Source: Ginglymostoma cirratum (taxonomy: Eukaryota). From it: a stretch of 64,000 nt of DNA. The notes beneath the pieces were generated by a model. That model saw only the letters and a list, made by a program, of their open reading frames with translations. It was not told the origin of the DNA and ran no database searches. The stretch spans positions 15,360,883-15,424,882 of the forward strand of contig JAHRHZ010000058.1 in NCBI GenBank assembly GCA_024137785.1. Direction: 5' to 3'. The position numbers and the translations under genes were made by a program. Below, piece by piece: positions 6,868 through 57,652 of the stretch (its first letter is position 1; each line of letters starts with the position of its first letter).

Positions 6868-7745
6868 CTACTTCTTGCCTTCTTGTCTTTCTTCAAGATA
6901 TTTCAAAGATTTTTCTGCCAGTTTCCCATCACAGACAGATGGTTTTTGGGAAGTCTCATTTTGAGCAGGTAGGACCATTGTGGTGCTTCCCAACAGGGCA
7001 CTAGTGGAGTGAGCCAAGGAAGTAAACTGTTGCCTCAGGCTAGGGTGCTGAAAGGTCATTGTGCTCCACAGAGCAAATTCACTGGAAACAAAGGGATGAG
7101 AGCCAGACAAAGTTGGTCTGAAAAGGGTTGGCACAGGGTAATGACTGGGTTGTGTAATTGTATGAGTGACATTGGGCAAACTTGCTACAACACTGTGGCT
7201 GTTTGGGGATACCTGGAAGGCATCAGACGGAGATCTAAAGGCAGAACTCAGAGACCAAGCTGATGAGGTTAAAGGACAGTGACCAGAGTTGTAGTCAGCT
7301 ATGTCCTTGGAGGTCTGTGGTTTGTTGTAATTCTTCGATCCTTCAGATCGCCTGGTGGTGCTGGACAGTAAGGTTTCAATTGCTGAAACCAAATCATTGT
7401 TGCAACCTTTCAGCACCAGCTCCAGGACGGACTGTTTCTGATTCGGAAATACCTTGGCTAGAACCTCAATAGGAGGCGTTTTAGACTTTCCTGAAGGAAC
7501 CATGTCCTTCAGCACGTCTTCCGACTTCAAGAACTTCGTGATGTCATTGAAGTTATATCTGGTGGCGACTTTAACGTGTTCTTTGTTTTCCTTCTTCCGC
7601 TGTATGTCATTGTTTGATTCTGGGAGGGGCAATGATAAATCGCTGTTTTGGGTATCTGTGGATGAAACTGGCTCTTCCACCTCACTTTCTGTAATCTTCT
7701 TCTGGTTGTTATCAGCATCTTTTCCTTCGACATCTTCATATTCAT
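6868..7745 (-). CDS. dmrt3: DMRT3-like transcription factor, coding exon 2 (DMA domain and C-terminus)
   Basis: Acceptor ttattgtcag|AT at 7746/7745 is phase 1 and joins exon 1 in frame (G+AT=Asp). DMA domain PPIEVLAKVFPNQKQSVLELVLKGCNNDLVSAIETLLS, plus DMRT3-like motifs WSLSSAFR and LWSTMTFQ. Stop TAG at 6868-6870. Spliced CDS is 1275 nt (424 aa). Confidence 0.92.
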
Positions 7746-10700
7746 CTGACAATAAATAGGTGTAATGATTAATTACAATGTGATGAATGAATGTTTTACG
7801 CTATTGTGCATTGTAACATACAGGAATCTACCTTTCTCTGAACGTAAAGCCAAACTAACTTTAACTTGGGTACTAGACCACTCAAAAATTTACGTTCACA
7901 GCCCTCATATTCCCTCAGAGCAGACAGAGTGTAGATATACGGCGAGGTAGGTGCGCCCTTAAATTCGTGCTTCAAAGCTCCAGTTCCACCAGTGCGACGC
8001 TGTGCTGTACACATTAATTGTGAATAACGAAGCAGCTTTACAAGATACTTGCGGAGCTATTTTTACTGCCCAATGTAATATGTAAGTTTCCAATGTATGC
8101 TGTATCGCGATTTTTCTCTCGTACTAATTGCACATAACACACTAATCGCCATGGCAGCAGAATTTTACACTGTACAACCACGTTATTCAGTCTTTGACAC
8201 GTGTAGCAGCTCTGAAACGGTTTGTGTCATTGCAACATAATATTGCTGTGTATAAAACCTGGGATTCCGTAGATATTTTCATAGCGTTATCAGGTTGTCC
8301 TTTTTTTTAAAGGTTTGCGCATTTGAAATTCTAAGTCTGTTGATTTTATTACAAAGTTTTACAGTTCAGTGCATAATTCCTCTATATGCCCCCATCCTCA
8401 AAATTTAACTATTGCATTTTCTCTGCGTTCAAATACAACTGATGTCTATCCGCCAATCTACCAAAAAATATTATTTTCTTGACTTAAGAACATCATCTAG
8501 AGATGTTTACCAACACATTTAATGTTTATACAAGAAAACAGAATATCTAGACTCGAATCTTTTCCAACGTACACCCGTGAAAGCAGGTTGACCGGCAGTT
8601 TTTGAAGTTTGAATGTAAGATTATATTTGCGACATAGATAAAAGTTGATAATTGAAAAATGTATGATGGTGTTTAGTTAAGGAAAAATGACGCTGCTGAC
8701 AAGTGTTTTAATCAAAAACAAGGTTTTGTTGCCGGTCTAAGGACACTAAAAACTTTTACTTTGCGTTTTCCTTTAAAGACATTGCCTAACTGCAAATCCT
8801 GGCGAAAGACCTACCCAGGAAGCTCAGAAGCTAGCAGAGATTATCCGGCAATTTATTTGAAGTTTTGGAATGAAATAACTTTTATGTTTACATGACTTAG
8901 TTTCGTCAGTTATTTTTCCATTGTTACCCAGAGATGCTGGTTAGGATTTACTTTTCATTTGTTTCAAAGTTTAATATTGTGAATTATGAAATGACGACAT
9001 TTAAATATACATGGAATTGACCGGAACAATGAGTGAAAATATAAATAAATCGCTAGCGCACGCTAAAACGGGTTACCTATTTTACCTTCCGTTATCCTCA
9101 TTCTCAGGACTTCACTCGTCAACCTTTGAGAACTACGTTAAAATGATCCCTAATAAAAACCTTAACTATTAAATCATAATACAAAAACTCTCCAACAACT
9201 CCGAAACGTAACACATTCATTTTCTGAATGTGGAGTTAAAATGGTAAATACAGAAATGTTAGGCTGTCGTAGGAACTAATGGCAAAATGTCAATCGGGAT
9301 CAATTTCTTATATTTTTCAGATATGTAAATGTCACGTTAAACACAAGTGTCCCTGAAGTAGTCACGAATGACTTAATTGGAATAATACAAGCCTATAAAT
9401 GTGCGGGTTATTTTTATATTTCTTTTTGAAATAGCTCGAAATTATCCCAGCAGCAGGTCTCTCTTTGTTTCACTTGTAACCAGGCAATTTGATCCCTTAA
9501 TCCCTGTGCTCTGCAGTGATTAATCACGTCCCTGGGGCTGAAACGGTAAACGCGGGGCATCCAAACAGATCAATCCCCCTTTTCACCCCTGCGCAATTAT
9601 CATAACTAGAGTGTTATAGCTTTGAACTAGCCGGCTCTTTGATTTGTTGAACGTGGAAAAACAAGCAGGAAGCCAATTTGTAGTAAGAATAATCAGTTTT
9701 CAGAGAAAAGGGGATAACAAGAATGGCTTGCTTTAACAATGATGGTTCAGTTAAAATAGCATCCAGATTGTTGCAGTCACTGCGTATTGTGCTGCTCTTT
9801 CTCCTTGTTCCTTAAACCAAAGTCTGTTCCTACCGCTTGTTTGACATAGGTTATTCATGCTCGCGGCGTCAAGAAATCCTTTTCAACTATTTTGTGACAA
9901 CTAACGTTCATTGATTGAACACCGTTATTCTCATCGTCAGATCACCTTATATGGGAGATGAAGGTGAAGAGGCATAACGGGATGCTACTAAATTCTAAAT
10001 TTAATTGGTTACACATAAAAAATGATGCATTTGGCAGCAAGCAAATATTTAGAAAACGTTTGTTAAACATGCCAGCATTTCGGTATGCGCCGTTCCCGCG
10101 GTTTGGTTTAAATTCTCAATAGCTAAATAGCCATTTTCCGACATTCGCGCTCTCAGGAGGAGCCGGACACTATGGGCATGGAAAAATCTGTTTGATGTTT
10201 GGTGTAAATGTATCCCACCCAATGTTCCTGTCGAATGGATCGGCTGTAGATTTTGAGAAATCCTTATCCCTACCGGGAAGCAAAGTCATCCCATTTCATA
10301 GTCTCCCACCATTCCTGGAATAGTTCCAAATCGTACGGTAACAGAAAGCAGTAACTTCCCAACCGTTGAAATAGCTGCAGCAAACTGGGAACATCGAATA
10401 TAGTTAACGTCCCGTTTTTGGAATAGATACAACAAACTGGAGGCATGAATGTCAGTTATGTGAAGTACTGCCTTTAATAAATCACCTTGTCCACACTGCA
10501 TTTCACAGTATTTCTCATTGAGTGTGAGATCTCTGTGACCCGATAATATCCCCATCAATGTTTAGCTGTGTTTGAAAAAATACTTAAATGAGACAACGTT
10601 TCAGCTATTTTGCCAAGAAATGCAACAAGAAAACACCTGTTTAAATTCAGAGGACTACAAATGTTGTGAAGCGGCGCTGCATTTCACGTGAGGTGTTAAA

Positions 10701-10870
10701 GTAAAAATAAACCTGACGTCTAATATCGAGTGACTGCGACAATACAATATTCCTGCACTGCCTTATTACAGTCGAGGGAATATCTATGCGTGTCTTATAA
10801 TTTCACGCTGCTCATGTACACAGAGCGAAGAAAACCCTTGAAACATTTCTGGCCTGTGTGAATTTCCTAC
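7746..10870 (-). other. Single intron of the dmrt3-like gene (3125 nt, GT-AG)
   Basis: Canonical GT...AG ends with matching phase. The two-coding-exon layout is the same as in vertebrate DMRT3. Confidence 0.88.
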
Positions 10871-11267
10871 CCAGTTGCTGATGTAGTATGGAATCCGCAG
10901 GTGTCGTTTCGTCAAGTCTGTTTCTGCTTCTGCCGGCTGAGTACACGCTATCGGAAGGGGCCGAGTCCTCGAATCTCTCGGGGGCTGGATACATTGCTCT
11001 GTAATCCTCAGATAAAACCAGATTGCAAGGATTCTCGTTGCTTTGTTGCCTCCTGAGAGCCACCTGCGCGGCCATGACTCTCTGTCTTTCTAAGATGAGG
11101 ATGCACTTGTCGCAAGTGCAGTCTTTGAAGCGACAGTAGCGTTTATGGCCTTTGAGCCAGGACAACACCCCGTGATTCCGACACCGTGCGCACTTGGGAG
11201 TTCTCTGAGCTGGTGCTCGGGAAGACGCGGTCGGTACGTACAGATATGGAGCACCATAGCTGTTCAT
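10871..11267 (-). CDS. dmrt3: DMRT3-like transcription factor, coding exon 1 (DM domain)
   Basis: Starts at ACCATG (ATG 11267). Reads [78 protein letters not shown], which matches the DMRT3-diagnostic N-terminus and DM domain (MNGYGSPYLY...[20 protein letters not shown]). Phase-1 donor CTGG|GTAGGA at 10871/10870. Confidence 0.93.
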
Positions 11268-56514: not shown

Positions 56515-56664
56515 CTAAAGTGCCACAATCTTTTTTTTCTCGCGGATGAGAATGATTGAAAACTTTGTTACAAGATAGCGTGAGCCCCACCGGGTCTGGA
56601 ACAAATTGTCCAGAGACTGACGACCCAGAACTCAAACTAGCAACCTGAAACTCCCAGCCACGAG
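56515..56664 (-). CDS. dmrtb1: Possible 150-nt in-frame (phase 1-1) internal exon of dmrtb1
   Basis: Acceptor ctttgtttaattcag|CT and donor TTAG|GTAGGG. Open frame ARGWEFQVASLSSGSSVSGQFVPDPVGLTLSCNKVFNHSHPREKKDCGTL. No homology recognised. Confidence 0.4.
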
Positions 56665-57198
56665 CTGAATTAAACAAAGGTCGTTCACTGCAGGCGAAAT
56701 AACCAAGATTTATTGTAATTAGCAACAATTACAAATAACCTTCTTTCTTCGGAATGAAAGCAGTAAATACAGCTCTGTTACAGATGCAGGGAAATGTAAT
56801 GAAGGAAACGCATCCATCTGTTATTAGCTAGTGTTTCAAAGACCCCAACCTGATGCTTTCACGCCCAGGAGCTTTGAAGTCTCCCAGCAGCAGGGTGAAG
56901 AATTCAATCATTTAAGTACTGTGTCAGATTTCTTTGAATAAGATAATTAAACTACTGAACTTTAAAGATGAAAACTCCAATTACTATTTCAGATCACTGG
57001 TCTATTTCCTTGTTGGCTTCGTCAGTGTCATTGGATTTTAATACATTTTATAATCTGATTTTTGAACATTTGACCAGTCCCCTTGGGATGCAAATAAAAG
57101 TAAAAGGAGTTTTTTTCCGCCCCCTCCCCATTTGTGTTATTTGCTGCAGCCAGAACAGTGGGTGTAAAATATAGTGACTAATTATTCATTCGTCTTAC

Positions 57199-57652
57199 CT
57201 AAAGAGCCAGAGGTGTGGACCACATGGGCAGATGGACTGTCCTTCCTGTCGCCACTGCCCTGTCTACCCTCCTGCACCATTGAGGGGCCACGCCTGTCCG
57301 AAGCAGAGGTGTCTCCCTCCGGCACTGGGCTGGGGTGCTGGCCTGTTGCTTGCTCCGGGGCAGGGGTTGGGCTAGTGCTGGTATTTCTGGCGTCTGCCCC
57401 CAGCGAAGGGCCAGCCGTCCCCATCTCCTCCTCGCGTTGCTGTTGTTTGCGGAGCGCTTTCTGCGCTGCCATGATGCGCTGCCGCTCGGCGATCAGGTAG
57501 CACTTGGGGCACTGGCAGCGCCGCCAGCTACACGCCCCGTGCCCCTTCAGCCGGACATCGAAACCATGGTTCCTGCAGCGAGAGCACTTCGGGGTCCGGG
57601 GAGACTTCACTGCCGCCCCGGCACCCCTCTCCCCTTTAGTGCCCCCAGGCAT
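57199..57652 (-). CDS. dmrtb1: DMRTB1 (dmrt6)-like transcription factor, coding exon 1 (DM domain)
   Basis: ATG at 57652 (AGGATGC). Reads [66 protein letters not shown] and IMAAQK are DMRTB1 hallmarks. Strong phase-1 donor TTAG|GTAAGA at 57199/57198. GC- and CpG-rich. Confidence 0.88.

Follow-up and report, generated by a model that had tools for sequence, protein, structure and literature searches.

An intact second dmrt3 gene, dmrt3b, in a dmrt6-dmrt3b-dmrt2b cluster of the nurse shark Ginglymostoma cirratum

Gene content of the locus

Examination of a 64,000-nucleotide stretch of the nurse shark genome (assembly GCA_024137785.1, contig JAHRHZ010000058.1, positions 15,360,883 to 15,424,882; hereafter the window) revealed two DM-domain genes, both on the minus strand, as a first-pass annotation made from the sequence alone had reported. 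The upstream gene, dmrtb1 (dmrt6), is intact and encodes 315 amino acids in four coding exons at 57652-57199 (with the DM domain), 55006-54735, 42945-42798 and 26646-26573 (with the TGA stop); its introns are all GT-AG. Because the fourth exon lies at 26.6 kb, the dmrtb1 stop and the ATG of the second gene are 15.3 kb apart, and not approximately 30 kb as given in the annotation. The one assembly gap in the window, 10 N at 43768..43777 with a near-identical 45-base overlap on its flanks, had been regarded as a possible threat to the linkage of the two genes. It falls in dmrtb1 intron 2, with exons 1-2 and 3-4 correctly ordered on either side, and therefore does not separate them. Tandem repeats are represented in the window by a single trivial array.

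The upstream gene is of the DMRTB1 type rather than a DMRT1. Neither a Pfam Dmrt1 domain nor a DMA domain was found at its locus, it has four exons and an LRP8 neighbour, as published for dmrt6 (Dong 2020, PMC7689362), and the canonical SMARCA neighbour lies on another contig (C270). The best Atlas matches of the orthologous Heterodontus dmrt6 are DMRTB clusters.

The downstream gene, dmrt3b, starts with the ATG at 11267. Coding exon 1 (11267-10871, 397 nt) carries the DM DNA-binding domain (11064..11204, residues 22-68; Pfam PF00751, E 3.5e-25) and ends in phase 1 at a GT donor. A GT-AG intron, also of phase 1 (10870-7746, 3125 nt), separates it from coding exon 2 (7745-6868), which encodes the DMA domain (7372..7473, residues 91-124 of the exon-2 peptide; Pfam PF03474, E 9.9e-16), the dmrt3-type C-terminal motifs and the TAG stop (6870-6868). 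The frame is intact, with one stop, and the product has 424 amino acids. Its DM domain is of the dmrt3 type, with the full set of zinc ligands and an intact recognition helix, and aligns with the DMRT1 structure 4YJ0 (E 1e-24).

Splicing of dmrt3b was observed in two relatives. Contigs of runs X6 and X1 leave out the intron, a net 3125 nt in both. It was thus bridged in two of four sequencing runs, X2 and X8 covering only exons. The 5' UTR extends at least over 11268..11493 (spliced contig of run X6) and the 3' UTR at least over 6646..6867 (contigs of runs X1 and X6), the latter with AATAAA/ATTAAA hexamers at 6834, 6780 and 6652. The coding differences listed against X6 number 11, ten synonymous and one non-synonymous. 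A CpG-rich domain at 8001..14000 covers promoter, exon 1 and intron, with CpG observed/expected values per kb of 0.51-0.89, the median of the window being 0.22; the canonical dmrt3 shares this pattern, with 0.66-0.89 across 8 kb.

Relationship to dmrt3 and distribution among vertebrates

A total of ten DM loci were found in the genome (10 matches among 14 candidates scored). A DMRTC2/dmrt7-like gene and dmrt93B are present in this genome. As the first-pass annotation had predicted, one locus is a second and more conserved dmrt3, located between dmrt1 and dmrt2 on C270. The DM domain of dmrt3b is identical to that of this canonical copy (dmrt3a) at 54/57 positions (residues 21-77), against 59-81% for the next-best DM loci. 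Exon 2 matches exon 2 of dmrt3a with E 6e-26 over 245 amino acids, against E 6e-10 and 9e-5 for two DMRTA genes. The DM type, the DMA domain with dmrt3-specific C-terminal motifs and the intron after the DM domain place dmrt3b among DMRT3 genes; it is not the canonical member, which sits on C270, and it falls outside the dmrt3a clade. In bamboo sharks the two copies are 41% identical, whereas shark and mouse dmrt3a are 67% identical. Shark-skate identity is 77% for dmrt3b and 80% for dmrt3a, and dmrt3b is therefore not simply fast-evolving.

Orthologues of dmrt3b were found in 17 elasmobranch genera, including sharks, rays and skates, and the 16 aligned proteins are full-length with an almost invariant DM domain. 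To the possibility that the gene is a pseudogene, an allele or an assembly artefact, as the gap in the window and the former listing of skate dmrt6 as a pseudogene (PMC6737965) might suggest, we attach practically no weight in view of these orthologues, the open frame, the splicing, the mostly synonymous change, the 41% identity to dmrt3 and the position of the gap within a dmrtb1 intron.

In a search in which the best 120 of 8000 scored proteins were considered, 13 elasmobranch matches scored 587-940 bits and the next at most 357, and no chimaera or bony-vertebrate dmrt3b was found; nor did the best 150 include a distinct 50% cluster of non-elasmobranch dmrt3b. On the basis of protein databases and one published table, the gene thus seems to have been lost in chimaeras as well as in bony vertebrates. 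The proposal that it was kept in cartilaginous fishes and lost in bony vertebrates holds for elasmobranchs and, at the level of protein databases, seems to hold for the bony loss, but chimaeras seem to be without it, and two losses would be needed.

Two paralogous clusters

On C270, dmrt1 (3.40 Mb), dmrt3 (3.57 Mb) and dmrt2 (3.65 Mb) are all on the plus strand, flanked by KANK (3.29 Mb), SMARCA (4.22 Mb), LDLR-family (4.52 Mb) and GLIS-type (5.40 Mb) genes. On the contig of the window (C58), dmrt6 (15.42 Mb), dmrt3b (15.37 Mb) and dmrt2b (15.31 Mb) are all on the minus strand. The dmrt2b gene had been predicted on the minus strand to the left of the window and lies there, 46 kb from position 1; two stretches of 5,000 N occur in the interval between it and dmrt3b. 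The flanks, where lrp8 and glis1 had been expected, contain KANK (15.67 Mb), LRP8 (15.55 Mb) and GLIS-type (14.89 Mb) genes. The locus KANK-LRP8-dmrt6-dmrt3b-dmrt2b-GLIS is a paralogon of the block KANK-dmrt1-dmrt3-dmrt2-SMARCA-VLDLR-GLIS, and both dmrt3 copies lie in collinear paralogous blocks, as do ohnologues from whole-genome duplication. KANK and GLIS paralogue numbers were set by position and not by tree, and the LDLR-family exon on C270 ties between LRP8 and VLDLR (100 vs 99 bits) in a comparison with PDB. Database models in which dmrtb1 and dmrt3b are fused, in Heterodontus and Pristiophorus, reflect the same adjacency.

These arrangements bear on whether dmrt3b could go back to an ancient duplication of one gene or of a short segment, with insertion between dmrt6 and dmrt2b and without genome duplication. 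Nothing directly favours such an origin, apart from the fact that no paralogous non-coding element common to both clusters was found, a single candidate having been followed up. That candidate, in the dmrt3-dmrt2 interval (82% over 71 bp), proved to be a dispersed repeat, with 40 of 40 scored matches spread across many contigs. Such an origin is very improbable because dmrt3b occupies the exact middle slot, with the same strand and intron phase as dmrt3 in its own cluster, because the block carries three more paralogous flank families, and because dmrt3 already adjoins dmrt2a/2b in amphioxus and acorn worm (PMC6737965).

Age of the duplication

In the main tree (32 proteins, 413 columns), dmrt3b forms a clade with support 100/99, dmrt3a a clade with 96/99, and cyclostome dmrt3, whose rows are long and compositionally odd, is sister to dmrt3a (94/93). 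The AU test rejects a grouping of dmrt3b with elasmobranch dmrt3a (p 0.00125) or with chondrichthyan dmrt3a (p 0.0028). A fast-evolving duplicate of dmrt3 that arose among elasmobranchs or among cartilaginous fishes would explain the elasmobranch-only finds by one gain without two losses. Such an origin is nevertheless extremely improbable in view of these rejections and of the similar rates of the two copies within elasmobranchs, and it requires a jump into precisely the ohnologous slot. In keeping with the expectation that dmrt3b would not nest inside shark dmrt3, these comparisons place the dmrt3a/dmrt3b split before the shark-bony fish divergence.

Trees in which dmrt3a and dmrt3b are held together, or dmrt3b is placed with cyclostomes, were not rejected (both p 0.07). 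With strict trimming (157 columns) the base was unresolved, the dmrt3a clade having 62/95 and the dmrt3b clade 94/93. C-terminal profiles lean cyclostome dmrt3 to dmrt3a, a weak test since invertebrate dmrt3 lean likewise. An impression by eye that hagfish and lamprey dmrt3 are nearer to dmrt3b was not supported by tree or profiles. The gene tree thus leans to 1R and agrees with it without proving it (p 0.07).

Published chromosome assignments speak to the same point. In the supplement of Marletaz 2023 (PMC10115646), skate Dmrt3-3 and Dmrt2-2 are on LER3 (CL, 2-alpha) and Dmrt2-1 is on LER10 (L, 1-alpha). The 1-2 split is older than the lamprey split. Carried over by gene orthology, these assignments make the two blocks the 1 and 2 copies of one chordate linkage group and most likely place 1R between the two clusters. 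Neighbouring genes pair accordingly: KANK on C270 matches KANK on C43 with 349 bits, against 86-218 in the remaining five pairs, and in the LRP8-LDLR family C58 pairs with C86. As C270 thus pairs with C43 and C58 with C86, C58 versus C270 is the deeper split. An origin in the gnathostome-only 2R, as proposed for dmrt1/dmrt6 (Dong 2020, PMC7689362), draws on the unrejected clade of dmrt3a and dmrt3b without cyclostomes and on the trimmed tree, and is improbable given the 1-alpha and 2-alpha segments, the pairing of neighbours and the leaning of the full tree and the profiles.

Discussion

The gene of 424 amino acids is best explained as dmrt3b, a whole-genome-duplication ohnologue of vertebrate DMRT3, the array having most likely been doubled at 1R; we give this reading a probability of about 0.85. 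The sister cluster that the first-pass annotation had postulated is supported by cluster order and paralogous flanks, and its date can be refined to, most likely, 1R, from the skate chromosome assignments and the way neighbouring genes pair. The array dmrt1/6 - dmrt3 - dmrt2 of an ancestor would have given rise to dmrt1-dmrt3-dmrt2a and dmrt6-dmrt3b-dmrt2b. Elasmobranchs would have retained all six genes, and dmrt3b would have disappeared separately in chimaeras and in bony vertebrates.

The product is predicted to be a DMRT3-type transcription factor whose near-identical DM domain would bind the pseudo-palindromic sites of Dmrt3 and whose DMA domain probably binds ubiquitin, setting protein stability; the linker and C-terminus appear to have diverged (exon 2 is 32% identical). 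Dmrt3 is expressed in dI6 spinal interneurons and in the telencephalon. Our guess, which we hold slightly more than we doubt, is that dmrt3b was kept by splitting the ancestral Dmrt3 expression domains of the developing nervous system with dmrt3. A role in gonad or germ cells through regulation common to dmrt6 seems rather unlikely, and one in other tissues a little less likely again.

Dmrt1 is the vertebrate sex gene most often re-used, and arguments about its origin and its relation to dmrt6 have so far had only remnants of two genes to go by. With the sister cluster complete, the match becomes gene-for-gene and is tied to 1R instead of 2R; most likely lying on the other side of 1R, the sister cluster indicates that the three-gene cluster is older than 1R. 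Among living vertebrates, both DMRT three-gene clusters may well survive in full in elasmobranchs alone, unreported as such, and in that reading, which we somewhat favour, the dmrt1/6-dmrt3-dmrt2 array and the origin of dmrt1/6 predate 1R, dmrt3b was lost twice (in holocephalans and in bony vertebrates) and, with DMRTC2/dmrt7-like and dmrt93B, the DM-domain genes of the ancestral jawed vertebrate numbered ten, whereas mammals have fewer. Dmrt3 is a gene of gait and left-right coordination. The dmrt3/dmrt3b pair is a natural test of how roles are divided after duplication of Dmrt3, and studies of dmrt3 in skate or catshark must distinguish the two copies.

The gene is a family member missing from current DMRT classifications, and it is mis-annotated in several shark genomes, where its models are fused or carry wrong names. 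Its automatic NCBI name is 'dmrt3, truncated-like', and database models are misnamed dmrt3a in Stegostoma and DMRT B1 isoform in Amblyraja; the whale-shark model is the same protein, differing from that of the window at 3 of 424 residues. Full-text literature searches, mostly outside subscription journals, turned up no publication on a dmrt3 ohnologue in sharks or on the full cluster, and 'dmrt3b' matched just one sea-cucumber and one sole paper; the 12 files covered of the 24 in a whale-shark supplement make no mention of dmrt. The possibility that the gene was undescribed stands for the full cluster, for which no published description was found, but not for the gene itself, which is not wholly unseen: a little-skate 'dmrt3b' is listed under subset 3 in Table S1 of Mawaribuchi 2019 (PMC6737965). 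It is very probably the orthologue (skate P0012). It is represented there by short contigs only, without synteny, and goes unmentioned in the main-text passages available. Similarly, ohnology of dmrt1 and dmrt6 gains cluster-level support here but is not new, having been proposed from kank1/kank4 (Dong 2020, PMC7689362).

Among known systems, the dmrt6-dmrt2b cluster of gar and coelacanth has the same order, strand and kank4/lrp8 flank as that of the nurse shark (PMC6737965; PMC7689362), but the tables of these sources place no dmrt3 between the two genes. The DM domains of dmrt6 and dmrt2b are separated by 9.5 kb in gar and by 45 kb in coelacanth (PMC6737965); in the nurse shark, where dmrt3b lies in between, the distance is 104 kb. 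The 19 cases, for example wnt6b, in which chondrichthyans retain an ohnologue that bony fishes have lost (Marletaz 2023, PMC10115646) represent the same kind of event, dmrt being unnamed in the main text of that paper. With vertebrate DMRT3/dmrt3a, dmrt3b has in common the DM and DMA domains, two coding exons with a phase-1 G|AT junction, the N- and C-terminal motifs, the middle slot of a three-gene cluster and the CpG-rich 5' end. It differs in forming a separate clade, with 41% identity overall and 32% in exon 2, in being without the acidic C-terminal tail of dmrt3a, and in its flanks, the neighbours being dmrt6/LRP8 and dmrt2b/GLIS for dmrt3b but dmrt1/KANK1 and dmrt2a/SMARCA2 for dmrt3a.

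Gene structure and splicing of dmrt3b

A six-frame scan of the window revealed two DM domains, both on the minus strand. The downstream gene, dmrt3b, carries a DM domain in coding exon 1 (11267-10871) and a DMA domain in coding exon 2 (7745-6868), both identified with Pfam; the exons are separated by a phase-1 GT-AG intron and together encode 424 aa without interruption of the frame. The upstream gene can be identified as dmrt6 (dmrtb1) from the two best Atlas clusters of its horn-shark orthologue, which are named DMRTB, from its four coding exons (57652-57199, 55006-54735, 42945-42798 and 26646-26573, minus strand, 315 aa) and from its adjacency to LRP8. 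The first-pass annotation was right about two DM genes on one strand, but its spacing of about 30 kb shrinks to a measured 15.3 kb because the four-exon model runs down to 26646-26573. The only assembly gap in the window (10 N at 43768), flagged as a risk to the pairing, proved harmless: it lies inside dmrt6 intron 2, with dmrt6 exons ordered on either side.

In the dmrt6 DM domain (57652-57199), the stretch from the second histidine to the next cysteine is one residue shorter than in dmrt3-type domains, a spacing common to Heterodontus and Pristiophorus. The gene is intact here, in contrast to the skate dmrt6 listed as a pseudogene (PMC6737965). Introns and spacers contain LINE-type reverse transcriptase fragments and a Harbinger-like nuclease, classed by eye (18007-18366, 33462-33869, 52564-52890, 59033-59803 and 62546-62989).

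dmrt3b is a spliced and constrained DM+DMA gene. Contigs from two of four sequencing runs skip its intron, with a net 3125 nt that equals the predicted length exactly, and coverage of the locus is exon-only in all four runs. The contig of run X6 is about 98% identical to the window and that of run X1, from another organism, about 90%. Splicing is read from the joined contig with its UTRs, as expected of a spliced transcript, in runs that carry no RNA label on record. At least 11 coding differences separate the window from X6, among them 10 synonymous (of 285 synonymous sites) and 1 non-synonymous (of 928 non-synonymous sites). The whale-shark protein departs from that of the window at 3 residues, and on these counts dN/dS is estimated by hand at about 0.03-0.09. 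Across 16 aligned orthologues mean column identity is 80%, the DM domain being nearly invariant. CpG observed/expected reaches 0.51-0.89 over 8-14 kb of the window versus a median of 0.22, and canonical dmrt3 behaves alike.

Taxonomic range

The exon 2 query matched 12 clusters, each from a named elasmobranch or a whale-shark gene model, and cluster members combined with a profile search place dmrt3b in 17 named elasmobranch genera, among sharks, rays and skates alike. Among the best 120 of 290 matches (8000 candidates scored), the profile search gave 13 at 587-940 bits and a next tier, at 357 bits or below, of canonical dmrt3 proteins, those of chimaera, gar, bowfin, bichir, paddlefish, coelacanth and lungfish among them. 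An unfiltered search of 1.84 billion representatives returned one dmrt3b cluster in the best 150, and a strong preference for the dmrt3b profile among 380 fetched proteins was confined to named elasmobranchs, the window and unnamed skate-cluster members. Among annotated proteins, the level at which this absence holds, no dmrt3b was found in chimaeras or bony vertebrates (best 120 of 290 matches; best 150 clusters).

Database models fuse dmrtb1 to dmrt3b in Heterodontus and Pristiophorus, and the Amblyraja dmrt3b is named a DMRTB1 isoform, so these elasmobranchs have the dmrt6-dmrt3b adjacency in common with the window. Elsewhere, the Stegostoma dmrt3b is misnamed dmrt3a, and dmrt1 is fused to dmrt3 in a goby and probably also in a pipefish; mis-annotated DMRT records are P0020, P0326, P0022, P0005, P0327 and P0328.

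Two DMRT clusters in one genome

The first-pass annotation proposed that the window belongs to a sister cluster of the canonical one, and this proposal is real and essentially correct. As it predicted, a second dmrt3 lies elsewhere in the genome between dmrt1 and dmrt2, on contig C270, where the three genes share a strand and the only Pfam Dmrt1 domain is found. Exon 2 of this dmrt3 shares 95% identity with named shark dmrt3a and 62-63% with DMRT3 of tetrapods. The dmrt2b expected left of the window is likewise present, as a DMRT2-type gene 46 kb left of position 1 on the strand of the window's two genes; two 5,000-N runs, possibly gaps, lie between it and dmrt3b on the window's contig, C58.

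On C270, KANK, dmrt1, dmrt3, dmrt2, SMARCA and an LDLR-family gene follow one another in one orientation, ahead of an opposed GLIS-type gene. Read along the minus strand, C58 presents KANK, LRP8, dmrt6, dmrt3b, dmrt2b and a GLIS-type gene, with LRP8 and the GLIS-type gene opposed to the others. The human gene neighbourhoods used for comparison are those at 1p32, 9p24 and 19q13. The C58 receptor exon scores 125 bits with LRP8, 97 with LDLR and 86 with VLDLR; that of contig C86 scores 123 with LDLR. LRP8 and VLDLR tie on C270, and the receptor there is named VLDLR by position. A second, far longer LDLR-repeat gene (C270:4341988-4436206), which we take to be possibly an LRP13-type receptor, stands between SMARCA and the VLDLR-like gene.

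Age of the dmrt3/dmrt3b split

A tree of 32 proteins, hand-picked across lineages from about 380 fetched and rooted on amphioxus and acorn worms, separated a dmrt3b clade (100/99) from a canonical dmrt3a clade (96/99), in agreement with pairwise identities (dmrt3b versus dmrt3a 41%; shark versus mouse dmrt3a 67%; shark versus skate 77% for dmrt3b and 80% for dmrt3a). Hagfish and lamprey dmrt3 grouped with dmrt3a at 94/93. AU tests rejected the grouping of dmrt3b with elasmobranch dmrt3a (p 0.00125) or with all chondrichthyan dmrt3a (p 0.0028); neither a joint dmrt3a-dmrt3b clade nor dmrt3b with cyclostomes was rejected (p 0.07 each). In a second tree, with ray-finned fishes added and 157 conserved columns, the window protein fell within dmrt3b (94/93) and the base formed no clear branching.

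On first versus second vertebrate genome duplication (1R versus 2R), the chromosomal evidence is stronger than the gene tree. KANK exons pair C270 with contig C43, while those of the receptors match C58 to C86 (about 537 bits summed over six exons in common, versus 476 and 470), leaving C58 versus C270 as the older split. The PMC10115646 supplement places skate Dmrt3-3 and Dmrt2-2 on chromosome LER3, labelled 2-alpha (CL, chicken Z), and Dmrt2-1 on LER10, labelled 1-alpha (L, chicken 8); the 1-2 duplication predates the lamprey split (Simakov 2020).

Putative function and retention

According to one review, DM domains bind a 13-bp pseudo-palindrome, mixed DMRT complexes can assemble on DNA, and the DMA domain of human DMRT3 binds ubiquitin; according to another, Dmrt3 specifies dI6 inhibitory interneurons involved in left-right and in fin or limb coordination. 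Since 54 of 57 DM-region residues are the same in dmrt3b and the shark's own dmrt3 and the helix is intact relative to DMRT1, Dmrt3b is predicted to bind the same DNA sites as Dmrt3. Its retention for more than 400 million years is probably due to a putative division of expression domains with dmrt3, neural domains first, to which we give a probability of about 0.55. A gonadal role through regulation common with dmrt6 ranks second and seems rather unlikely.

In the skate pectoral fin, anterior versus posterior log2 fold changes are -9.4, -6.5 and -5.0 for Dmrt3-3, Dmrt2-1 and Dmrt2-2, all three differentially expressed (SI Table 5 of the PMC10115646 supplement); Dmrt3-3, the canonical copy on LER3, is the sole Dmrt3 among the rows listed.

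Other DM genes

The DM search retained 10 loci out of 14 candidates, a total of ten DM genes. A DMRTC2/dmrt7-like gene (C216:313323-301819, minus strand; loci L010, L025 and L047) has a DM domain interrupted by a phase-2 GT-AG intron and, in the same orientation 11 kb further downstream, the genome's only match to PF15791 (DMRT-like, DMRTC1/C2; 28.1 bits, cut-off 27). RPS19 lies about 40 kb away; in human, DMRTC2 adjoins RPS19. A literature search for shark dmrtc2 gave no relevant matches. DMRT7 has been called mammal-specific or mammal-and-reptile-specific (PMC6737965, PMC7689362); if the assignment is true, dmrt7 goes back to early jawed vertebrates. dmrta2 is found 19 Mb along C58 (C58:34632156), and dmrt93B-like and dmrta1-like genes stand in tandem (C24:254360 and 286038); a dmrt4-dmrt93B tandem is known in elephant shark and coelacanth (PMC6737965).

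Comparison with described DMRT clusters

dmrt3b is known already, from database entries under wrong names and from the label 'dmrt3b' in one supplement: Table S1 of PMC6737965 gives two dmrt3 genes for skate, dmrt3a and dmrt3b, both from contigs that are unplaced, enters skate dmrt6 as a pseudogene, and has one dmrt3 and zero dmrt6 for chimaera. It may be among the 19 ohnologues retained in chondrichthyans, for which the main text, as far as consulted, names no dmrt (PMC10115646, Marletaz 2023). A description of the three-gene sister cluster was not found in the portions of the literature searched, including zebra-shark, silver-chimaera and whale-shark papers, and the position of dmrt3b, its ohnologue status, elasmobranch-wide retention and 1R dating appear undescribed there. 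dmrt1 and dmrt6 have been proposed as 2R duplicates from data that, in the part consulted, held no shark (PMC7689362, Dong 2020), and a monotreme preprint, in the part consulted, likewise includes no shark (10.64898/2026.07.14.738559). Clusters of dmrt1-dmrt3-dmrt2a and dmrt6-dmrt2b have been described, the second without dmrt3 (PMC6737965, Mawaribuchi 2019), and the published syntenies kank1-dmrt1-dmrt3-dmrt2a and kank4-lrp8-dmrt6/dmrt2b match both shark blocks (PMC7689362).
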